Below, one piece after another: positions 11,826-23,624 of a stretch of 64,000 nt of DNA. Source of the stretch: a virus (Duplodnaviria; Caudoviricetes); IMG/VR virus record IMGVR_UViG_3300042554_000772, positions 760 to 64,759 of that record. The stretch is one strand, 5' to 3'. The notes beneath the pieces were generated by a model. It saw nothing but the letters and a program-made list of their open reading frames with translations, was not told the DNA's origin and did not search any database. The position numbers and the translations under genes were made by a program. The stretch's first letter is position 1, and every line of letters begins with the position of its first letter.

Positions 11826-13114
11826 TGGCAGCACTTAGCAGGGCGGTAATACAACTACCAGACTTCGCTGAAATGGCTTACAAAAAGTCATTAGCGGACG
11901 AGGAGCGTCGTTTAAGGGACGAGGAGAAGCAAGAGCGCAAAGTGGCTCAGAGGCAGCGGGAAGTCGATACTTTCGGTGTCAAGCAGTCTTATTACGAGAA
12001 ATCTTTCGCATTAGAGCCAGGCGCTAAAGCGGTAGCAGGTGAAGCATATAAGGCGTTTGAACAGGCTGGTATAGAATACGAGAAGACTGGCAGCGAAGAA
12101 GCTAAGCTTAAAATGCAGAAAGCGGCTGGTGTATACAACCAAGTTGTTGGTACTGGATTAGCAATATCTAATGGTATAATGGAAGAGGCGGAGACTTTTA
12201 GAAAGAATCCTTCAGCTTTTACTTCAGAAAGTCAAAAAGTGGCAAATCAAGCAATCGCTGATAGAAAAAACATTAACTTTCAACCTGTTCTTGAGAATGG
12301 GGTTTTATTCGTTACTGAAAAAGGCAAAAAGATACCAGTTACTGAATCCGTTTATTTTTCAACTAACTTACAACCAGGCTACAACACGCTTGGTTTAGTG
12401 CCAGTTGACCCATCTACCAAGTATATGAATCCAATGGAACAGGCTCAGCTCCTATCCAAGGGTCATTCGGATGCCAATGGGGTTAAAATAGACGATGGTA
12501 CGAATATTACATATAATAAACCAGAATTAGTCAAAAAAGTTAGGGCAGCCTATGAGAATAATTTAAAGGAATACCTGCCACAGGTGGAAGCTGTTATACT
12601 TAGACATTGGACTGCAGTAAATGGTAGACCTCCTTCTCCTCAGGAAAGGGAAAGCGTTATAGCTGAGTATAAAAACCCTACCTTATTTGAATCCGCTAAG
12701 GAAAGATTCTGGAGTGAAATGTTTCCGTTTATTGATACTCCACCAACACAAAGAGGGGTTGCATCTCAGCAACGCGAGCCATCGAAGAGAGACGAAGAGC
12801 TATCTTTCTTCTTGGAGAACTCAAAGCCAACTCCTGGAGTCTTCTCAGACGGGCGTAGAGCTATTCGCTTCATGTCCCCTCCAATTAAGGACATCGAGAT
12901 TGATAACTTTAACTATACCATCAAAGAGGTATCTTTTGACAAAAAGGGAACACCGAGTATGGTTATCACTGACTCAGAGGGTGATGTTTTAAAGAATGAC
13001 TCGAAGGAGTTCAAGTCTGCATACAAGGAGGCTCTTATTGACATGAAACCGTACCTTTCAAAGTTGAGGGCGATTTCTATGAATGAGCTATCTCGCAAAC
13101 AACCATTACCATAA
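11825..13114 (+). CDS. putative ejected cargo protein 2
   Basis: Helical, charged, coupled by TAATG; position between cargo genes. Confidence 0.55.
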   Translation: MAALSRAVIQLPDFAEMAYKKSLADEERRLRDEEKQERKVAQRQREVDTFGVKQSYYEKSFALEPGAKAVAGEAYKAFEQAGIEYEKTGSEEAKLKMQKAAGVYNQVVGTGLAISNGIMEEAETFRKNPSAFTSESQKVANQAIADRKNINFQPVLENGVLFVTEKGKKIPVTESVYFSTNLQPGYNTLGLVPVDPSTKYMNPMEQAQLLSKGHSDANGVKIDDGTNITYNKPELVKKVRAAYENNLKEYLPQVEAVILRHWTAVNGRPPSPQERESVIAEYKNPTLFESAKERFWSEMFPFIDTPPTQRGVASQQREPSKRDEELSFFLENSKPTPGVFSDGRRAIRFMSPPIKDIEIDNFNYTIKEVSFDKKGTPSMVITDSEGDVLKNDSKEFKSAYKEALIDMKPYLSKLRAISMNELSRKQPLP

Positions 13115-13127
13115 TAAAACAATCTAG

Positions 13128-16100
13128 ATGGATACAGAAGTTAAAAAGTTTGTGGAGCGCTCCATCAAAAGGGGCGACTCTTTAGCCCAAATTAAATCTA
13201 CGCTTGTTTCCTACGGCTGGGAGGAGAATGTAAACGAGGCGACAGGTTACTACGACGAGTTTAAAAAAAAAAGTCCCGCTGGAACTGGCTTAAGGGCCGC
13301 TGGGGTTTCTCCTTCGAGGCAAACGGTTACTCCGTCTTCATCGGGGTTTGCTTCTCAAGAAACTAAGAATATACCATTAGAGGACCCGCTCCTCACCAAG
13401 AAAGACGGGTATGCTAAGTCTTTGATGGAGCAGCTGAACTTAGCTGCAAAGGACAAAAACAATAGGAATAAGTACGTTCCAACCATCAACAAGCTTTGGA
13501 ATGAATACTCGTCAATCGATAGGGGAGCGCCTACCCCTTTAAGTCTATTTGAGGATAATGGGGCTATAAGCAAGAACTCATTAAATCTTCTTAATGAATC
13601 TTCTGCTAGGAATGCAGAGAGAATGAAAAGGGAAGCTATAGCAATAGCTAAAGATGATAATGTTTTAGAGTCGGGTGTAAGAAGTTTATGGGCGGGCTTA
13701 CTTGGTACAGCAAATTATCTTGGCGACTTGGTTGACCCAGATAGCTACGATGATGTGCCAGATGCAAAAACAGACCTTGAAAAGGAAGCTGAAGCTCAAT
13801 CGGCTAGGGCTCAGAAAGCCTCCTATGGACGTAAGTTATTAGCTGGGTACACGGACAAACAGATTGAAGATGGGTTCTACAAGAACTTTGCTGATGGCAA
13901 TGTAGCTACAGCACTCGGTCTGTTTGGTAGGGATGTGGTAGAGCTTCTGCCTCAAGTCGCTGCAAACGCTATCCCATACGTCGGTCTTCCCGCTCTGGCA
14001 GCGTCTGCTGGTGGTCAAGCATGGCTTAAAATTAAAGACGACGAGAAATACAACACACTCGAAAAGTTTCTGTACGCACCGCTTGTTGGTGCTGCTGAAT
14101 ATTTTACAGAGAAGTTCTTCGGCATGGATAGAAAAATGATTCAAGAAGGACTGTCAAAAGCATTCGGTAAGACCATCACATCAGCAGCTGATATCCCAAA
14201 GAAAGAGCTCGGTGATATGATTTTCGGCACACTGCCAAAAGCTGTTAGAGCTCCGTTGGAAGAAGGTTTTGAGGAAAGTCTTGTGAGCACTTTTACGCAA
14301 ACCCTTGACAAGATTATGGCTGAAAAGCCATTTGACCCTGTTGAAATCGCTGAGTCTGCTATGCTTGGTGCTGGGGCTGGTGGTTCGACATACGCATTGG
14401 TGCGAGGCAGTTCCGCTTTGCTCCAAACCCCGTTGTTCTCTGATGTATACAAGATTACGAATACCGCAGCGAATATTGACAATATACTCAAATCCAAAGA
14501 CATCAGCGACGAAGAGAGGGTTATCCTAACCGACCGATTAAACGGGTATAAGACTCAAATGAGGAAGCTTCAAGATGGGGCTAGCGAATACTACAAGCAG
14601 TTCTCACAAGAAGATAAACAGAAGACGCTTGAGCTAAATCAAACGATATCTAGAGGCATCCGCTCTTACAGCACCATGAAGACGGCTGAAGCTAAAGCTG
14701 AAACCGTAAACAGAATCAAGCAATCACTAGCCGAGAAGGCACAAATCGAACAGAAATATGATAGTGCGCAAAAACAACAAGTACCAAGTCCAGTCGTCCA
14801 AGGGGCGCAACCTGGGGGAGTTCCCGTCCAAGGAACAGGCACAGAAACGCCTCAAGCAGGTGGAGTACTTCAAGTACCTAGCCAGCAAGAAGAAAAAGTA
14901 GCAGAAGCTGCTAAGCAACCAAACGTCGGATTCAGACCTACAAAGGCTAGCCTTACATCTCAAACGCTTCCTCAGATTCTTTCTAACCTAAAGTCTTATG
15001 TTGAAAGTATTCCTGAAGAAACGCTGCAGAAGTTCGAGACAACACGCCAGTCAATTACGAATGGGTTTGAATCCGTTGCTAATGTAATATCCTCCTTTGC
15101 CAAGGAAAGTCTTAACGTCGAAGTTGAGGCCATTAACACCGAAGACGAATGGAATAAGGCAACGATGGACCCCACCACTGGAAAGCCAGAGAAGCTGTCT
15201 AGGGGCCTGTATTACCAAAGAGGACAAGAGGGGGCTCCCTCTAAGATTATCCTGTTCGCCCCAGCATTGCTTGGCAACACGGTCTATCACGAGGGTATCC
15301 ACGAGATAGTCCCACAGGCATTTGGTCAGGAGGGTATAAACAAGGTGGCTAAAGCGCTTGCAAGCGGAATAAAGCGAGACCCAGGGCTTAATGCAAAATT
15401 TGGTAACTTCTTGTCTCAATACGAGCAAGGTGACAAAAACGAAGAGCTTCTTGCTGAGTTGGGGGCAATGGTTGCAGCTGGAGATATCGATGTCGAGATT
15501 ACGAAGAGCCTCGCCACACGATTTATGGAAGCCGTAGCGAGCGTATTAGGAGCGGTTGGTATCAAGATGGCACCGAACTCTTCGCAGCTCTCTGAGGCGT
15601 TTTTAAGCTACTCACAGAAGCTCGGAGCTGGGGCTAAGCTTGATATTCAAAAGACAGCTGAAACCAAAGAGGAAGGAGACAAAAAGGGGCCAAAGAGACA
15701 AGCTGTTGGACTTAGAACGAAAGAGGAAAGTCTTGCTGAATTTGGCTTCCCAGTCGGTGATAAAGTAACCAATATCCGTCAGGTAGGTGCTGCGTTAGAG
15801 AAAAGACAACAGAAGAAGTATATTAAAATAGCTAAAAACGATACCAGCGACAAGGCAAAAGATATTATCTCAAACTATATGGTTGATGAGGTGATATTTG
15901 AACTAGAATCACTCGGTGAGTCTTCTGCTAAGGGTTGGTATGGGGAAAAGTTTCAGAAAGCACTTGATTTGCTGTCTGAGTCTATACCCAGCCTAAAAGA
16001 TAAAGGCAACAGAAATTTGTTTACCATGCTTGTTGCTATAACTTCTGATGGACAAAAGGTTATCAATAATTTCACCTATGCTATATCGTTATACAACTCT

Positions 16101-19100
16101 TACTTAAAGGATGGCGTTGTATCTGACAAATTTAATTTTGGTGGAGATAGGAATTCTGGGATGAAGATAAATGTAGGCAATATAAATAGATTAATTAAGC
16201 AATATGGGAATGATTTTGTTGCAATCAATGATTTTCTATTGCAAACAGATAGCTACGGTAATATCAAGAAGAAATACAATATAAAAAAGAGCGATTACAA
16301 AGTAACCACAACGATGCCAATTTCGGCTGGGGTATTTGGGCCTAAATTAGGAGCGTTCTTTGCGAACCTTTCTGGTCAAGAGAACTATTTGACCATGGAT
16401 AGATGGTGGAGTAGAACTTTTAATAGATATAGGGGTATACTCTTACCAACTGTAAAAGAACAGGGCAAGCAGAAGTTTTTAAATGCCATAGGAAAACCAA
16501 ACATTAGCAACAACGCCTTCCTAAAAGAGGTCAAAAAGTATGCTGACTCATACATAAAGAAAAAATACAAAAACGGTACAGCTATAGAGAAAGCGGCCAA
16601 TACCATCTATAAAGCTGCTTTTGTAGAGCTTAATGATAAGCCTTTTAATGCTGGAGATAGGGATATGATGATTGAGACAACGCAGGTTGCTCAAGAAAAA
16701 CTCAAGAAGGCTGGTTATGATTTATCAATGGCTGATATTCAGGCCATATTATGGTATTTCGAAAAAAGACTTTACGCAGAGATACAGAGCAAAAAGTCAG
16801 CAATGGACGTGGATTATTCCAATGCTGTGACCAAATTAATAGAAGGGAAAAAGGATTTATCATTCTTGCCAAACGAAGTCTCGAAAATTGTTAATGTAAA
16901 GGAATCTGAAGACGAATATGTTGATGCTATTAGTTCTCCTAGTAGCAATATTATACAGCTAGATGAAGCTGTTGATTTAGCTGCTGTTGATAAGGCCACA
17001 GAGACTATAAATAACGCTCAGAAAAGAAAGACCCCAAAGCGTCAAGGTTTTGAGGGTAAGCAGTCAGCGACATTCGTAAGAGAGTTAGATATCGCTATTA
17101 CCCCAGCGACAACCGAAAGAAAGTTTGATAAGGTAACAGCTAGAATAAAGAGCCTATCTGAGAAATACGATAGATTAGTAAAAGAGTCAGAGAAAGGGAT
17201 TGACAACTCAGAGGAGATTAATAACGTAGCCTCTCAAATACTAGATGCAGCGAGGAAACAGCTTGCTGCTAGGATTTCTAAAGTAAAAGGTGCTTCCGTT
17301 AAGTTTGACGATGATTTTAGAGGTCTGTACAACAATGTATTCGAGCCATCTTTTAACCTCAAGCTAAGGCTTACACCACAATCAAATGAGAATGAGGTAT
17401 CTCAGATTCTCAACGAGTTTGCTGAGAGATATACTCAAGATGCGTTTATCGTAGAAACAGCGTCAGAAGAATCAGAGGACTTTAGGAAGCAGTTAGGGGA
17501 AAATGTAATGCCTCTTGGCGATTACGACGAAAAGACAAATATGTCTCATTTCCCGCAACTTTATGCGGAATTTACCAGTCCTTTATCCGATAAGGAGCTA
17601 AATGAACTATCTTTGTCTTTAAGAGAAGGCGGAATTGATGGATTCTCGCTTAATAAGAAAGAATTAAAGATAACTATATTCCCATTTTTAACAGAAGAAC
17701 AAGAAAAATTATCAGAAGATGAGCAGCGAAGAATCAAAAAAGAATATTACGACGAACAAATCAGCTCAGCCCGAAAAGCTATGGCTAACGTCAGCCGAGT
17801 GGGAAGAGATGTCAAGTCAGAGGTCAGGTTCAGGAAGTCAACCTACAAAGGGGCAAAATCAACCGAAGGAGCAACCAGACAATACGATAGAGATAACTTT
17901 CTTAAAGCGCACAAAGACGGATTAACTAAGTATGAGCTGCTAGCTAAAGAGTTCAATAAGCTTCGTCTGGAGGAAATAGAGCTCTCCAAGAAAAAGGAGA
18001 AGCTACCTAATGATAAGCAAAAAAGGTATGATGAAATAAAAAGCGTCATTCAGCCTATCATCCAAGACACAATAGCTTTAAATGAGCCTTTTTACAAGGA
18101 GGCTAAGCGTGAGATAGAGAGAATTGCGTCGTCTGTTTCCCGCAACCTAAGAGGAGCATTCGTTTCTAGGTTCAACATAAAGAGACCAGAAAGGGCCTCT
18201 ATAAAGGTTATGCGATGGTATAACTCTGATATAGAAGACCTCGGTGATGGGGCTAGAGTAAATATCATCGTTGATAACGAGCAACAGGCTGACAGGCTGT
18301 TTAACGAAATCGACAAAAAGAACCCATCAAAAAACCCTGACAGGGAGAGGCGTGTAAATGAGACCACCGATTTGGGTTATCCGAAGCGTCTCATCGAGAT
18401 GGATACAAAGAATGGATTCATAGGGGAAATACAGATAATGACCCCAGAGGGGTATCTGGCTAAAGACGGGGTTGATTACTTTGACGACAATCAGCAAGAC
18501 TTTGCTAGAAAGAGACTCAAAGAAGTTCAGAATCGATTGGGATGGGCTATACCAGATGGTATAGGGCACTATTTCTATGAAATCAATCGTGACGAAAACA
18601 TAAACGACGAACTTAGGGAGCGTGCTAAAGCCCTTAGTCTTTCTTATTACAAGGCGTTTACAAACCCATCGTTTAAGTTAAGTGAAAGCGAGTTCACTAA
18701 AGAGCTGGCTAAGTTCAAAGAAGACGTAGACAAGGCTGATAAGAGCACTTGGGATGAAGGCAATAGCGGTAAATCACCAAAAACGCTAGACACCTATCTA
18801 GAAGAATCTGGAAAAAAAGAGCCAAAAGAAAGCGCACCTACTAAGAAGGCCATGCTCCAGATTATTGGTTCTAACTCACAGATGAAAGAATGGACATCTA
18901 AGATGCTATTAAAGGCAAACGAGATGGAGAGACGTGGAGTTAAGCCGAAAACAATCTTTAATGTGACTGGATGGGAGAGAGGAGCCGATAAGAAATGGAG
19001 ATACCCAGTTCCAACATTCAAGCTTAACTACACTAAAGTGGCTGAATTCAACGAAGGGCCAGTAGGTAATACGGTTAGCCTTTACGACCTTGTTGAAAAT

Positions 19101-22100
19101 AAGGGGAGGTTCAAGGAGGATACATCTAAATTCGGTTACAATAGATACGAATACGATGACAAGGGTAAGACAAGGACAAAGGAGAACGAGGACGTATTTG
19201 ATTTCTACCCAGAATTTGCTAATATGAAAGTAACGCTGGGACCATCTAATGGTTCTACGTTTTTTAAACATACGAAATCACCTGGGTCAAAAGGGCTTGG
19301 TGAAATAACTATGTCAAAAGATTGGTACAACAAGAGTCCAGACCACTTTTTCTTTGTTCTTGTTCACGAAATACAGCACGCAGTACAGAGAGAAGAGGGA
19401 TTTGCTGTTGGTGGTAGTGCATCAACCGTTGACAATGAAATCGATGAAGTTATTAAGGCAAACGAAAGAATCCTTAAAAACAAGGACAAGATTGTACCAG
19501 CTCTAAAAGAGAACATAAAAGAGCAAAAAAAGCGGATAAAATGGTATATCGACCAAGGGTATAGCCAAGAAACAATGATTAAGGATGGCGTATTGACCAC
19601 TCTTGATGGCTTAGAGACTCAGGTTCGTATGATTGACGATGTTGAGAAGCAATTAAACCTTTTAAAACAGATAAAAGCGGCTACTAATTTATCCAGCGTA
19701 GAGAAGTATAGAATCCTTTCTGGAGAGGTAGAGGCGGATAATGCTGCTAGAAGAGCTGCTTTTCAACTTGCTAAGGGGTCTCTTGCTACACAGCCGCTCA
19801 TAGATACCGAAGAAATCCCTAGAGAGTATCAGCTCATAATCACCCCAGATATCGAGGATATGTCTCTACCGTCTTTCTTGACTAAAATGGGATATCCCTC
19901 TAAACCCAAGCGTCAAGATATCTTAAGAGTAGCTGCACTGAAAGACGTGGAGAGTACGGCTAAGGCGTTAGAGGAGAAGTATTCAGCACAACCGATTAAA
20001 AGAAATGATATAATTAACAATAATCCACAAGAAATATATGCTTTATCAATAGGTATAAATCCAAGTAATTTATCCTATTTAGGTAAGGGGGATTTCGGGA
20101 AGGCATATAGCACTGACATTGGAACTGTTATAAAAATAACTTCATCAGCCAATGAGGCAGAAATAGCTTTAAGTTTAATAGGAAAAAAGGGAAACCACGC
20201 AGAAATATATGATGTAAAAAAAGTTGAAAACGAGTTTATTATACATCAAGAAGAATTAGACACTTATTCAGAAATTGAAGACAATCTACAAACAGTAGAA
20301 AATATTCTAAGCGAACAAGAATTGCCAATTCAGTATTTAGACTATTTAGACTATGACGAACTAAGTCAAGAGTCCAAAGATGAATATGATAGTTTATCGA
20401 ATTTCATTTCTGATTTAGAAGACATAAATGGACTTTATAGGAATTTAGGTATTGAAGCATCTGATTTGCAAAGTGGTAATTTAGGTTACGACAAAAACGG
20501 GAAACTAAAAGCATTTGACTTACAAGATAAATCTTCAAAGATAAAATCAAAAGATGTTAATGCAGATGCCCTTAAAGATAAAAATCAAGTAATCTCCGAA
20601 GCCTACCACGAAGCCAAGAAAGACGGGTCTAATCCTGAATTAGTCAAAGCGGTTGAGGACTTGTTGGTTGGAGAACAACAGCAACCAAAGCGCCAAGGCA
20701 TCTCAAAAGCTCAAGGGCCACTAATACCGATAGTCTACAACAGCTTGCTGCAGCAATCCACTAGGAACGCAGATGGGACGAATACCCCACCGTACACGCT
20801 TCAGGAGTGGCTGACCATGATGACCCCTTACCTGAACGCACAGACAGCTACTGCAATCTACAACGGTGTTGCAAGGAACAAGCCACCGTTCACTGCACCA
20901 AGCATCCAAGACGCTTACGATAGCTCAAAGAAACGCATGGAGGCAGGGAAGAACAAGGCTTTCTTCACATGGAACAACCTCAAGAAATACTTCATTGACA
21001 GACAGGCAGAGCTCAAGAAGGCGATTCTCGCCTCTGGGATGAAGAACGCTTACAACTATCTGGTCAACAAGGCTGGGTCTGGGGCTAGAGCTGCCTACTT
21101 CTACTACGAGAAGGAGAAGGATATCTACAAAGACCTCAAGAAGGAACAGATTGAAAAGCTCGACCAGATTATCATGCTCAGGCGTATCATCGAGATTGAT
21201 AGCAACTTCGATGAGCGTGGCGAAGCCCGCCCAAAGCACACCAACGGATTCAATAAGGGGTACGCTGAGATGGAGCTTTCAAGGCTCCAGAGTGAGCTTG
21301 GGGACGCTGCTTACAACGACCTCAACAACCGTGCAACCAAGTACTTTGATGCTTTCCGTTCGCTGTTAGACTCTATGTACGAGGAGGGGCTTGTTAGCGA
21401 GGAGCTGTACGAGCAGCTGAGGGATATCGATTACCAACCACGATTGTTCCTAGACCACGTTTTCGAGATGGATGAGCCATCCATGCGTGAGATGAACCTA
21501 AGCGCTGCACAAATCAAGCGAATCAAGGAAGGTAGCGAGGGTGACATTATGTTTGACTCAAGGTTCCTCCTAGCTCTTTATGCTAAGAGCGCATTCTCCA
21601 AGATTGCACGCAACAAGGCTAACAAGGAGATTGCCAAGGCCACCGAGGCACAGGGCAACGAGTCATGGGTATCCAAGACTGATAAGCCAGGCTTCAGCGA
21701 GGTTACTTACTTTGAAGATGGTGTCAAGAAGTCTTTCTACTTAAAGGATAACTTGAAGTCAGAGCTTGACGACATCAGCCGTGTATCAGGGATGCCTCAG
21801 AACATACAGAAGCTAATCGGTATGGTTACGGGTTCATTTGCAGTCAAGCTGTTGGCCACGAGGGCAAACCCATTGTTTGTCGCTAAGAACGTACCAAGGG
21901 ACTATCTGCACGTTCTCTTCTTCACGAAAGCATACGATAATATGTCCCTACCGCTTGCAGCCATGAGGCTCGCTGGTGACTTCATCAAGGGTGTTAAGAG
22001 CAAGCTCCAAGACGACCAAGACTTCAAGGACTTCGTTGAGTTCGGTGGTGGTATGGACTTTCTGTCCACAGAAGGAATGGAGAGTATGATTACGAACAGA

Positions 22101-23624
22101 ACTGTAACTAACAAGATTATTGAGAAGCTTGGTAAGGCTGGGGAATTATCAGAGATTGGCTTCCGCTTGGCTATGTACAAGAAATTCAAGGAAGACGGCA
22201 TGAAGGCCCTAGGACCTAACGCAACGGAGGATGAGGTTACAAGGGTTAAGGTTCAAGCTGTTACACAGGCTAGAGAGATGATTGACTTCTCTCAGGGCGG
22301 TATTGCAACGAAGAACTTGGAGATTGTCTCCCCCTACATCAACTCAGCATTCCAAGGCTTCAGGGTATCAACTAGCTACATTCAGAATAACCCCAAAGAG
22401 TTCGCTAAGAAGCTTGGATACTTATCTATCGGTGTAATGATGCTTGCGCTTTACAATGCGATGCTTGGTGACGACGATATGGAGGATATCCCAGAGGAGA
22501 CCAAGCGTAAGTACTTTATCATCATGACTCCGTTTACTTTCGAAGAGGACGGGAAGACCAAGCGTCACTATGTCAAGATAGCGAAGACACAACAGCTTGC
22601 ACCATTCATTGCTGGTCTTGAGCTGACATCGGATTACTTTGTTGCAGGGGTTATGGGGCGTAAGCCAAGAGAATCCAAGGATGCTTATGAGTACGCTTGG
22701 AAGGGGGCTACAATGTACTTCCCTAAAGACCCAAGCAACATCAAGAAAGAAATCTCTTCATCGGTTCCGTTGTTTGCTGCTATAGCTGCCTATGACATGA
22801 ATTACGACACCTACAGAGAGCGTGCTGTGTCAATGGACTACAACCAAGTGCTCCCACAGGACGAAGACTTCACCAACAAGCAAGTCCCTTACTTTTACAA
22901 GGCTCTCGCTCAAGGTATCGGTGCATCTGGCGGTGAGGCTGGCCCTAAGCGCCTTCAAGTCGCTACTGAGAAGTTCGTAACCACCCCGTATTCATCCTTG
23001 CTAACCATGGGTGCGTACACGATACTTGATTCGTTCTCAAGGCTATTCGAGCTTAAGGGCCCAGGAGGTATCCCCGTAAAAGACCAAGCAGCTATCTCTA
23101 ACAGCGTCAGCAAATCGTTAGGACTCAGTGCTTCCAAGGTGTTCACGGGTGCTACTGAGCCAGACTGGAGGAGCTACACGAGGAAGGAAGAGATTGAGCG
23201 CATCAACATGGAGGAGAAGTCCGAAAGACGTGGTATCAAGATTGCAGCTCAGAATATCGGTCAGAAGTACTTTGAGGCTTCCAACGCAAAGGATAGCAAG
23301 GCTATGAGCGAAGCTAGGAAGGAGTACCAAGATGAGTTGATGCGAATCAAAAAGGAGAGCGGTGTACCAGACGCTAAGTATTTTATGGATGCCTTCCAGC
23401 AAGCCAGAAAGTACGGGAAAGCCACCAACCCAGAGTACAACGACATCAGCTACGCTGCAAGCAACGAAGCTAAAGCGAGAATCATCATGGAGTACGGGGG
23501 TAGGACGATGAGCAGAAAAGAGTTAGTAGAATACATCAACGACTATAAGCGGAAGACTGGTAAGCCAATCAATGGTTCCGAAATCCTCCGTGAGTATCAA
23601 AAAGAAACAGGCTATGGTAAGTAA
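13128..23624 (+). CDS. giant polyvalent cargo protein (zincin, glycosylase-like, RelA/SpoT-like, LPD23-zincin, protein kinase, LPD38-like)
   Basis: HEGIH at 15288; GWY..AITS..GPKLGAF..TMDRWW..QAILW; K.PERA..K..DGAR..GY..EIQI..GH.FYE; TGWERGADKKWR plus HEIQH and GEVEA; GKGDFG..K..DLQSGN..AFD; IDFSQGG..PYINSAFQG. Confidence 0.8.
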   Translation: MDTEVKKFVERSIKRGDSLAQIKSTLVSYGWEENVNEATGYYDEFKKKSPAGTGLRAAGVSPSRQTVTPSSSGFASQETKNIPLEDPLLTKKDGYAKSLMEQLNLAAKDKNNRNKYVPTINKLWNEYSSIDRGAPTPLSLFEDNGAISKNSLNLLNESSARNAERMKREAIAIAKDDNVLESGVRSLWAGLLGTANYLGDLVDPDSYDDVPDAKTDLEKEAEAQSARAQKASYGRKLLAGYTDKQIEDGFYKNFADGNVATALGLFGRDVVELLPQVAANAIPYVGLPALAASAGGQAWLKIKDDEKYNTLEKFLYAPLVGAAEYFTEKFFGMDRKMIQEGLSKAFGKTITSAADIPKKELGDMIFGTLPKAVRAPLEEGFEESLVSTFTQTLDKIMAEKPFDPVEIAESAMLGAGAGGSTYALVRGSSALLQTPLFSDVYKITNTAANIDNILKSKDISDEERVILTDRLNGYKTQMRKLQDGASEYYKQFSQEDKQKTLELNQTISRGIRSYSTMKTAEAKAETVNRIKQSLAEKAQIEQKYDSAQKQQVPSPVVQGAQPGGVPVQGTGTETPQAGGVLQVPSQQEEKVAEAAKQPNVGFRPTKASLTSQTLPQILSNLKSYVESIPEETLQKFETTRQSITNGFESVANVISSFAKESLNVEVEAINTEDEWNKATMDPTTGKPEKLSRGLYYQRGQEGAPSKIILFAPALLGNTVYHEGIHEIVPQAFGQEGINKVAKALASGIKRDPGLNAKFGNFLSQYEQGDKNEELLAELGAMVAAGDIDVEITKSLATRFMEAVASVLGAVGIKMAPNSSQLSEAFLSYSQKLGAGAKLDIQKTAETKEEGDKKGPKRQAVGLRTKEESLAEFGFPVGDKVTNIRQVGAALEKRQQKKYIKIAKNDTSDKAKDIISNYMVDEVIFELESLGESSAKGWYGEKFQKALDLLSESIPSLKDKGNRNLFTMLVAITSDGQKVINNFTYAISLYNSYLKDGVVSDKFNFGGDRNSGMKINVGNINRLIKQYGNDFVAINDFLLQTDSYGNIKKKYNIKKSDYKVTTTMPISAGVFGPKLGAFFANLSGQENYLTMDRWWSRTFNRYRGILLPTVKEQGKQKFLNAIGKPNISNNAFLKEVKKYADSYIKKKYKNGTAIEKAANTIYKAAFVELNDKPFNAGDRDMMIETTQVAQEKLKKAGYDLSMADIQAILWYFEKRLYAEIQSKKSAMDVDYSNAVTKLIEGKKDLSFLPNEVSKIVNVKESEDEYVDAISSPSSNIIQLDEAVDLAAVDKATETINNAQKRKTPKRQGFEGKQSATFVRELDIAITPATTERKFDKVTARIKSLSEKYDRLVKESEKGIDNSEEINNVASQILDAARKQLAARISKVKGASVKFDDDFRGLYNNVFEPSFNLKLRLTPQSNENEVSQILNEFAERYTQDAFIVETASEESEDFRKQLGENVMPLGDYDEKTNMSHFPQLYAEFTSPLSDKELNELSLSLREGGIDGFSLNKKELKITIFPFLTEEQEKLSEDEQRRIKKEYYDEQISSARKAMANVSRVGRDVKSEVRFRKSTYKGAKSTEGATRQYDRDNFLKAHKDGLTKYELLAKEFNKLRLEEIELSKKKEKLPNDKQKRYDEIKSVIQPIIQDTIALNEPFYKEAKREIERIASSVSRNLRGAFVSRFNIKRPERASIKVMRWYNSDIEDLGDGARVNIIVDNEQQADRLFNEIDKKNPSKNPDRERRVNETTDLGYPKRLIEMDTKNGFIGEIQIMTPEGYLAKDGVDYFDDNQQDFARKRLKEVQNRLGWAIPDGIGHYFYEINRDENINDELRERAKALSLSYYKAFTNPSFKLSESEFTKELAKFKEDVDKADKSTWDEGNSGKSPKTLDTYLEESGKKEPKESAPTKKAMLQIIGSNSQMKEWTSKMLLKANEMERRGVKPKTIFNVTGWERGADKKWRYPVPTFKLNYTKVAEFNEGPVGNTVSLYDLVENKGRFKEDTSKFGYNRYEYDDKGKTRTKENEDVFDFYPEFANMKVTLGPSNGSTFFKHTKSPGSKGLGEITMSKDWYNKSPDHFFFVLVHEIQHAVQREEGFAVGGSASTVDNEIDEVIKANERILKNKDKIVPALKENIKEQKKRIKWYIDQGYSQETMIKDGVLTTLDGLETQVRMIDDVEKQLNLLKQIKAATNLSSVEKYRILSGEVEADNAARRAAFQLAKGSLATQPLIDTEEIPREYQLIITPDIEDMSLPSFLTKMGYPSKPKRQDILRVAALKDVESTAKALEEKYSAQPIKRNDIINNNPQEIYALSIGINPSNLSYLGKGDFGKAYSTDIGTVIKITSSANEAEIALSLIGKKGNHAEIYDVKKVENEFIIHQEELDTYSEIEDNLQTVENILSEQELPIQYLDYLDYDELSQESKDEYDSLSNFISDLEDINGLYRNLGIEASDLQSGNLGYDKNGKLKAFDLQDKSSKIKSKDVNADALKDKNQVISEAYHEAKKDGSNPELVKAVEDLLVGEQQQPKRQGISKAQGPLIPIVYNSLLQQSTRNADGTNTPPYTLQEWLTMMTPYLNAQTATAIYNGVARNKPPFTAPSIQDAYDSSKKRMEAGKNKAFFTWNNLKKYFIDRQAELKKAILASGMKNAYNYLVNKAGSGARAAYFYYEKEKDIYKDLKKEQIEKLDQIIMLRRIIEIDSNFDERGEARPKHTNGFNKGYAEMELSRLQSELGDAAYNDLNNRATKYFDAFRSLLDSMYEEGLVSEELYEQLRDIDYQPRLFLDHVFEMDEPSMREMNLSAAQIKRIKEGSEGDIMFDSRFLLALYAKSAFSKIARNKANKEIAKATEAQGNESWVSKTDKPGFSEVTYFEDGVKKSFYLKDNLKSELDDISRVSGMPQNIQKLIGMVTGSFAVKLLATRANPLFVAKNVPRDYLHVLFFTKAYDNMSLPLAAMRLAGDFIKGVKSKLQDDQDFKDFVEFGGGMDFLSTEGMESMITNRTVTNKIIEKLGKAGELSEIGFRLAMYKKFKEDGMKALGPNATEDEVTRVKVQAVTQAREMIDFSQGGIATKNLEIVSPYINSAFQGFRVSTSYIQNNPKEFAKKLGYLSIGVMMLALYNAMLGDDDMEDIPEETKRKYFIIMTPFTFEEDGKTKRHYVKIAKTQQLAPFIAGLELTSDYFVAGVMGRKPRESKDAYEYAWKGATMYFPKDPSNIKKEISSSVPLFAAIAAYDMNYDTYRERAVSMDYNQVLPQDEDFTNKQVPYFYKALAQGIGASGGEAGPKRLQVATEKFVTTPYSSLLTMGAYTILDSFSRLFELKGPGGIPVKDQAAISNSVSKSLGLSASKVFTGATEPDWRSYTRKEEIERINMEEKSERRGIKIAAQNIGQKYFEASNAKDSKAMSEARKEYQDELMRIKKESGVPDAKYFMDAFQQARKYGKATNPEYNDISYAASNEAKARIIMEYGGRTMSRKELVEYINDYKRKTGKPINGSEILREYQKETGYGK
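13263..13366 (+). other. A10 slippery tract and -1 frame extension KSRWNWLKGRWGFSFEANGYSVFIGVCFSRN*
   Basis: TTT AAA AAA AAA AGT at codons 45-49; the -1 frame is open to TAA 13364-13366 with preferred C/G-ending codons. Confidence 0.5.
14758..14901 (+). CDS. nested 47-aa basic protein in the +1 frame of the giant gene
   Basis: MIVRKNNKYQVQSSKGRNLGEFPSKEQAQKRLKQVEYFKYLASKKKK; A-rich start context; resembles a small phage family of form MIRK..RNLG.F...A.KRL.QVEYFK. Confidence 0.75.
   Translation: MIVRKNNKYQVQSSKGRNLGEFPSKEQAQKRLKQVEYFKYLASKKKK

Follow-up and report, generated by a model that had tools for sequence, protein, structure and literature searches.

The stretch of DNA considered here is a 64,000-nucleotide (nt) window from an uncultured marine phage (positions 760 to 64,759 of the IMG/VR record IMGVR_UViG_3300042554_000772, contig size ~64.8 kb). 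On its plus strand lies an open reading frame (ORF; 13128..23624, stop included) of 3498 amino acids (aa), which codes for a giant polyvalent, probable virion protein, designated P0001. The tetrapeptide PKRQ occurs four times in exact form in this protein, at aa 855, 1303, 2260 and 2520 (nt 15690, 17034, 19905 and 20685), and marks the junctions between its modules, at which cassettes are exchanged among related phages.

Modular organization and genomic setting

The modules, all on the plus strand, begin with a constant N-terminal part (aa 1-854, 13128..15689), in which two motif-free linkers of low complexity precede a zincin-like domain at aa ~590-833. The HExxH of this domain, HEGIH (aa 721-725, 15288..15302), is followed ~55 aa downstream by a conserved E-x-L-x-E-L-G helix. 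Junction 1 (PKRQ, aa 855-858, 15690..15701) leads into the cassette mod7 (aa 859-1302, 15702..17033), with a HhH-GPD DNA-glycosylase-like fold at aa 869-1254, and junction 2 (PKRQ, aa 1303-1306, 17034..17045) leads into the cassette mod4 (aa 1307-1898, 17046..18821), in which aa 1658-1822 (nt 18099-18593) are of RelA/SpoT type. Junction 3 is degenerate (PKES, aa 1899-1902, 18822..18833) and is followed by a cassette containing LPD23 and a second zincin (aa 1903-2259, 18834..19904), the HExxH of which is HEIQH (aa 2080-2084, nt 19365-19379). Junction 4 (PKRQ, aa 2260-2263, 19905..19916) precedes a kinase-like cassette (aa 2264-2519, 19917..20684) with a folded core at aa 2298-2473, and junction 5 (PKRQ, aa 2520-2523, 20685..20696) precedes the constant C-terminal module (aa 2524-3498, 20697..23621). 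A preliminary description of this DNA had given PTKKAMLQ (aa 1904-1911, 18837..18860) as the sequence of the remaining, non-PKRQ junction. A junction does exist there, but it is the adjacent PKES, at which relatives sharing the upstream module have PKRQ; PTKKAMLQ is the lead-in of LPD23, with Gln 1911 immediately before the LPD23 core.

The labels glycosylase-like, RelA, LPD23 and kinase, originally assigned from the letters of the sequence, find support at the fold or sequence level, and the zincin labels agree with the HExxH motifs. LPD23 scores 37.7 bits against a Pfam cut-off of 27 and is the sole family above cut-off in the giant protein, with LPD38 matching the C-terminal module weakly (19.3 bits, cut-off 27). 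In VIA-align, the best match of aa 869-1254 is 3n0u (Z 10.8, root-mean-square deviation 4.0, 199 residues aligned), and most of the top 23 rows belong to DNA glycosylases of the HhH type, accompanied by two DUF2419 queuine-salvage proteins and one phage 5-PmdU glycinyltransferase; because the fold is helical, these Z values are only moderate evidence. In Pfam, the same cassette has a weak, sub-threshold match to DUF7178. The region aa 1658-1822 matches the RelA/SpoT-type synthetase Tas1 (6ox6_A, E 1.3e-5, phmmer against the PDB), and the folded part at aa 2298-2473 is similar to protein kinases over their N-lobe and catalytic core (VIA-align, Z 10.4-7.8, ~130-144 residues aligned), with conserved helices flanking the core. 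The kinase-like cassette has 240 shorter homologues, mostly free-standing and ~185-196 aa long, some of them on contigs of up to 293 kb; the fold and these free-standing homologues fit the truncated kinase described by Iyer et al. 2017. A Foldseek search of the PDB with the two-domain model gave no match at E ≤0.001. The polypeptide thus carries several unrelated effector or enzyme domains (glycosylase-like, Tas1/RelA-like, kinase-like and two HExxH) and, in LPD23, a member of the LPD domains that characterize polyvalent proteins.

The gene lies in a late or virion-gene setting. Its upstream neighbours are virion structural genes (PHROGs) and a gene for a protein with a crAss-type muzzle C-terminal domain, and elsewhere in the window are genes for terminase, portal and an endolysin-like protein, along with those for replication and nucleotide metabolism (ribonucleotide reductase, primase/helicase). 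Two cultured phages have relatives of the C-terminal module: a protein of Maribacter phage Panino and, in Cellulophaga phage phi46:3 (Pachyviridae), gp120, whose annotation as a virion structural protein is an indirect sign that the window protein may be packaged in the virion and delivered at infection. In these two cultured relatives the C-terminal module is present, with no HExxH and no clear junction motif. Between gp120 and gp121 of phi46:3 (12701-13100), the frame-0 translation contains one stop followed by an open frame into gp121, and the homologue in this phage may be one gene broken by a single stop. A PHROGs search of the giant protein returned 0 families, a megablast search against phages gave no match, and an IMG/VR scan found only 2 loci.

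PKRQ and cassette exchange among relatives

From the composition of the protein, 0.023 copies of PKRQ are expected against the four seen (Poisson p 1.2e-8), a p value that no 4-mer attained in any of 1000 shuffles. A cruder control is weaker: some 4-mer occurs four times in 40 of 500 shuffles, so the rarity of PKRQ resides in the composition-weighted measure. At the DNA level, the pattern CCNAAGMGNCAA has 4 matches in the window (0.41 expected; 0 of 100 shuffles reach 4), all of which are the in-frame PKRQ sites. Among six-frame window ORFs of at least 80 aa, PKRQ is confined to the giant protein. The large terminase subunit contains a single PKAQ (aa 51-54, window 58057-58068), probably by chance. 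The preliminary description had located the four copies correctly to the residue and had stressed their different synonymous codons; these are, in order, CCA AAG AGA CAA, CCA AAG CGT CAA, CCC AAG CGT CAA and CCA AAG CGC CAA, so that the variation is confined to Pro (one site of four) and Arg, with Lys encoded by AAG and Gln by CAA throughout.

A length-matched search yielded 103 related giant proteins, to which the P-numbers used here refer. The C-terminal ~980 aa are common to all of them and the N-terminal ~850 aa to most, and the middles are variable. Identity over aa 1-847 is 58-96% in clade A relatives and 39-60% in clade B, and the C-terminal module is 36-98% identical across P0002-P0043. 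Whole-protein MAFFT alignments (A2, A3 and A5) forced non-homologous cassettes together and misplaced the kinase homologues; they were set aside, and the trimmed alignments A4 and A6 were used.

The proposal that PKRQ marks module junctions is confirmed by these relatives, in which the same upstream module is followed, directly after the motif, by different downstream modules. In the 14 closest relatives, PKRQ, PKAQ or PKRM is placed where one upstream cassette meets differing downstream cassettes. For example, the tail TWDEGNSGKSP..LEESGQKA-PKRQ leads into a kinase-like module in P0002, into another module in P0003, and straight into the C-terminal module in P0006, P0007, P0012 and P0013. The LPD23-zincin tail ..KMGYPSK-PKRQ leads into the kinase-like module in the window protein, whereas P0009 has the C-terminal module at this point. 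Measured from motif to motif, the cassettes fall into classes of constant length: one of 596-597 aa is found in 8 relatives, one of 304-307 aa in 9, and one of 979 aa is shared by 13 of 15 clade A proteins. At junction 5 all 15 clade A proteins have PKRQ. The LPD23-zincin cassette is optional, being absent from P0002 and P0003. In an unbiased breakpoint scan of clade A, 34 of 102 homology-start sites fall at the motif, the windows of which make up 1.8% of positions; the corresponding figures for clade B are 21 of 74 sites and 5.0% of positions. The same short site is therefore found at the junctions, as in processed polyproteins, in the form of four PKRQ and one PKES in the window and of swap points in the relatives. 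Avoidance of the motif inside domains, as a sign of negative selection, was also considered and was dropped, P0003 having an internal PKKQ. Among 14 shorter matches to the C-terminal module, no free-standing module beginning at the junction was seen in those inspected, which start at an internal Met or carry other upstream sequence; the shorter matches come mostly from short contigs, are mainly contig-end fragments, and give no evidence of split genes.

AlphaFold models were obtained for aa 590-1320 and aa 1860-2760, with a mean predicted local distance difference test score (pLDDT) of 74 and 72, respectively. All five junctions lie in stretches of pLDDT <50 (aa 834-868, 1297-1320, 1895-1919, 2201-2276 and 2515-2529), between domains that are mostly at pLDDT 80-97; the N-terminal zincin-like domain (aa 590-833) is among the parts that are folded. 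A position of PKRQ inside folded domains had been named beforehand as the result that would speak against its role, and the models instead place every site in a low-confidence interdomain linker. The sites are thus predicted to be exposed, low pLDDT being an indirect sign of disorder.

Lineage variants and the glutamine before domains

PKRQ is one of several forms of the junction site. In clade A it varies to PKAQ, PKRM and, once, PKRS. The pattern PK.Q is enriched both in 15 clade A proteins (47 seen, 6.8 expected) and in 7 clade C proteins (16 seen, 2.4 expected), the rows in each case being related and non-independent. In clade B, the C-terminal module of which is 56% identical, the sites take the form [P/K]K-[V/A/I/L]-K-x-Q (PKVKLQ, KKLKAQ, KKIKLQ, NKIKFQ and KPKAKQQ), and in clade C, with a C-terminal module 38% identical, the form (S/T)QPKFQ. 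With the positions numbered P4 to P1 so that Gln is P1, 70 unique contexts, chosen by a motif pattern that fixes Lys at P3, have Q (61), M (8) or S (1) at P1, and P (54) or V/A/L/I (16) at P4. These comparisons support a protein-level junction pattern that appears to be kept across clades, with Lys at P3 and Gln or Met at P1, and with lineage variants. The clade B sites have little DNA in common, suggesting that the constraint acts on the protein.

Three further observations concern individual sites. P0027 has, before its C-terminal module, a tandem pair of junction-type sites spaced by 12 residues (..KVKRM-AISEDIG-KVKRM..). In the same protein, TKAQ precedes IISG at the start of an LPD23-like module. 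Within the C-terminal module of the window protein lies GPKRLQ (aa 3272-3277, nt 22941-22958). This hexapeptide is unchanged in all 9 sequences aligned, which come from clades differing in their junction codes, and could represent either an ancestral site or a motif of structural importance.

A Gln before domains is also seen well outside this family. The glycosylase-like cassette has 1897 representative homologues (E ≤0.001), nearly all inside giant proteins, with homology starting right after PKRQ. In 102 of 136 representative giant proteins, Gln stands directly before the glycosylase-like domain, and the preceding residues are lineage-specific (LFQ, LYQ, LNQ, RSQ, MYQ). Further copies of the P3-P1 tripeptide in the same protein number 111, with 51.2 expected (60, 54 and 53 in controls), examples being sRSQ four times, LFQ four to five times and dpriMYQ three times. 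Gln also stands directly before the [IL]IG of LPD23 in 11 of 13 unique contexts from several lineages, aligning with the Gln of PTKKAMLQ, and precedes an HGSP-type domain in 7 of 14 contexts. In AF_016 of the cultured Pseudomonas phage AF (2213 aa; L023 4976-11617), reading by eye finds ..RRLDQ|FAGQ.. before an LPD23-type HExxH domain and ..RLLNQ|NDNGDARGF.. ~45 aa before a second HExxH, both of which fit the L-x-Q of other lineages. One possible extension, offered tentatively and with the odds somewhat against it, is that polyvalent proteins of many tailed-phage lineages share a Gln-anchored processing code, x-x-Q before each domain, in which P4-P2 are rewritten per lineage with the resident zincin; the lineage forms counted under this code are PKRQ, VKxQ, PKFQ, LFQ/LYQ, RSQ and MYQ.

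Candidate processing and comparison with known systems

The best explanation of the PKRQ tetrapeptides, at a probability of roughly 0.55, is that they are proteolytic processing sites of a virion-packaged polyvalent protein, with the general form [P/V/L/I/A]-K-x-[Q/M]. The protein would consist of a constant N-terminal part with a zincin-like HExxH domain, a constant C-terminal part with a structural or ejection role, and, between these ends, a variable run of effector cassettes (glycosylase-like, RelA/Tas1-like, LPD23-zincin and kinase-like), each flanked by disordered linkers bearing the motif. We infer that, after assembly or after ejection, a peptidase would cut at, or directly before, the conserved Gln and free the cassettes as separate proteins. 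As all cassettes carry or join onto one and the same short site, exchange at the junctions would leave processing intact. In line with this explanation, the six modules have, in order, GC contents of 46%, 37%, 41%, 41%, 33% and 48%, with steps at the junctions, and the extremes are the kinase-like cassette (33% GC, 26% GC at third codon positions) and the C-terminal module (48% and 60%). Such sharp differences are as expected of imported units.

Several observations weigh against processing at these sites. Junction 3 is PKES in the window and PKRS in one relative, so either Gln is non-essential or these sites are uncut. In the clade A breakpoint scan, 68 of the 102 homology-start sites lack the motif; most are local identity drops and a few are motif-less joins, one module join without the motif being ..AKLDIQKMEE|SRTRVQG... 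The 61 more distant family members show no excess of PK.Q (18 seen, 22.6 expected), and a de novo 4-mer scan of them found no common motif. The Gln before domains may be no more than the residue at which conservation of each domain begins, and thin alignment columns can lower pLDDT without true disorder. To the same side belong the codons of the junctions. At the PKRQ sites 14 of 17 Arg codons are CGY, although CGY accounts for 24% of those in the genes as a whole, a likeness that points to shared descent or DNA-level copying of junctions along with cassettes. Lys is likewise AAG at 17 of 22 motif sites and Gln CAA at 20 of 22, and the junction codons go with the downstream cassette.

The junction codons also bear on a different account, in which the linker is never cut: the 12-nt junction with its flanks is a recombination handle or its scar, and the protein acts undivided. 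Exchange takes place where the motif lies, as a handle would have it, and the codons are more alike than the protein needs. Three proteins with metallopeptidase (MPTase) domains, the N4 virion RNA polymerase (RNAP), ArdC and TraC1, are delivered full length (Iyer et al. 2017, PMC5512222), which also counts against processing. Against the handle account, the junctions have only 12 nt in common and no longer flanking DNA repeat; the clade B sites (VKLQ, LKAQ, IKLQ, IKFQ, AKQQ) keep Lys and Gln with little shared DNA; and Gln persists before the same domains in proteins that are 40-50% identical, with no DNA homology left. This account is judged unlikely.

A motif that is short, exposed and basic, that lies in disordered linkers and that is specific to the giant protein could also be a docking or targeting peptide, one per cassette and never cut, recognized in packaging, by a chaperone or by an ejection channel. 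Such a peptide has no known partner, and it would explain neither the placement of the motif at every junction, only downstream of the zincin, nor its set-wise change between lineages. It is accordingly regarded as improbable.

If the sites are cut, the peptidase is somewhat more probably the protein's own N-terminal zincin than any other protease. The preliminary description had proposed the resident HExxH zincin. Constancy of an HExxH domain across the family agrees with this: of 43 family members, 38 have the N-terminal pattern NT.YHE..H and the other five are shorter entries that are probably cut at a contig end, and at least one HExxH is present in 138 of 150 representatives (153 in total, 5.5 expected). 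The window protein has two such motifs, at aa 721 and aa 2080. The LPD23-linked zincin is not required, since P0002 and P0003 lack it and keep four PKRQ, and the sequences point to the N-terminal zincin as the better candidate. PKRQ is absent from the two linkers upstream of this domain. Prediction of a complex between the zincin domain and a 36-aa junction peptide scored 0.01 against a mark of 0.32, which speaks neither for nor against. Telling against a peptidase role, the N-terminal HExxH domain matches no Pfam family and had no peptidase match in VIA-align, a comparison that barely tested this part and did not address its fold.

Because zincins as a rule recognize the residue that follows the cleaved bond, cutting may take place ahead of the Gln, in which case each cassette would begin with it. 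A P1 Gln is characteristic of 3C-type enzymes, which are cysteine or serine proteases, and less so of zincins. This preference, together with the missing family or fold match to a known peptidase, would favour cutting by some other enzyme, either a head-maturation protease that the phage encodes separately or a protease of the host; this reading is a variant of the processing explanation. Head proteases such as T4 gp21 and those of phiKZ and SPN3US trim packaged internal proteins at short consensus sites during head maturation; their sites have a terminal Glu and are spread over many virion proteins, and the enzyme that cuts them is distinct from its substrates. In the window, no head protease was recognised among the ORFs annotated or scanned, though several ORFs lack annotation, and, unlike head-protease sites, the motif is confined to one protein rather than shared among several virion proteins. 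HExxH, moreover, accompanies nearly all such giant proteins. Cutting by another enzyme is regarded as quite unlikely.

RNA-virus polyproteins offer a parallel to processing by a resident enzyme. Their 3C/3CL-type proteases cut after Gln, and the window protein is like them in having a short junction site with Gln in exposed linkers, a resident protease candidate and virus-specific P4-P2. It differs in belonging to a double-stranded DNA phage and in having a candidate metallopeptidase without homology to 3C-type enzymes, and the scissile bond may precede Gln. For polyvalent proteins, self-processing by zincin-like MPTase domains was already proposed by Iyer et al. 2017 (PMC5512222), who drew the analogy to RNA-virus polyproteins. 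Like the proteins they described, the giant late or virion protein of the window strings unrelated effectors (a kinase without its C-lobe, RelA/SpoT and LPD23, with LPD38 as a weak match) around HExxH. The available text of that study names no cleavage site, linker motif or swap point ('linker' occurs 0 times and 'cleavage site' once), whereas exact sites, lineage variants and a Gln common to several domain families are defined here. In literature searches, no motif for the junctions or the cleavage of polyvalent proteins came to light, although supplements, which they did not cover, may hold more. The idea of zincin self-processing is thus in print, and the residue-exact junction motif with its lineage variants appears to be new.

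Other packaged proteins resemble the window protein in part. In crAss-like phages, the virion RNAP block of phi14:2 (gp65-gp66-gp67) is in some phages fused into a huge polyprotein that is 'likely cleaved', and one component has a zincin-like domain (Drobysheva et al., 10.1101/2020.03.07.982082). The window protein is similarly a large, probably virion-packaged protein encoded beside tail genes, with a crAss-type muzzle protein upstream, but its middle consists of effector cassettes and not RNAP. Identity as a virion RNAP was rejected, the 3498 aa containing neither DFDxD nor DxDxD, and tblastn of aa 1-3000 gave 11 records, none of them phi14:2. Phage P1 DdrB is a polyvalent protein with an MPTase that is processed before packaging (Iyer et al. 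2017, PMC5512222); unlike the window protein, it has, as described there, a single processing event and no cassette array. A 2811-aa polyvalent protein of phi24B was found in virions, and the part of the preprint available says nothing on its processing.

Ever since giant polyvalent proteins were described in 2017, the question has been whether they are cut, where and by what. The window locus supplies residue-exact candidate sites, a candidate protease amenable to a one-residue test (E722), and natural swap experiments in the relatives. If the wider Gln rule is true, injected effector domains would become delimitable in thousands of uncharacterised phage proteins, which would help to explain the rapid turnover of cassettes. 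A shared Gln code, if true, would mean that double-stranded DNA phages run a true polyprotein strategy like that of RNA viruses; it would delimit hundreds of injected effector domains exactly and explain the free exchange of cassettes.

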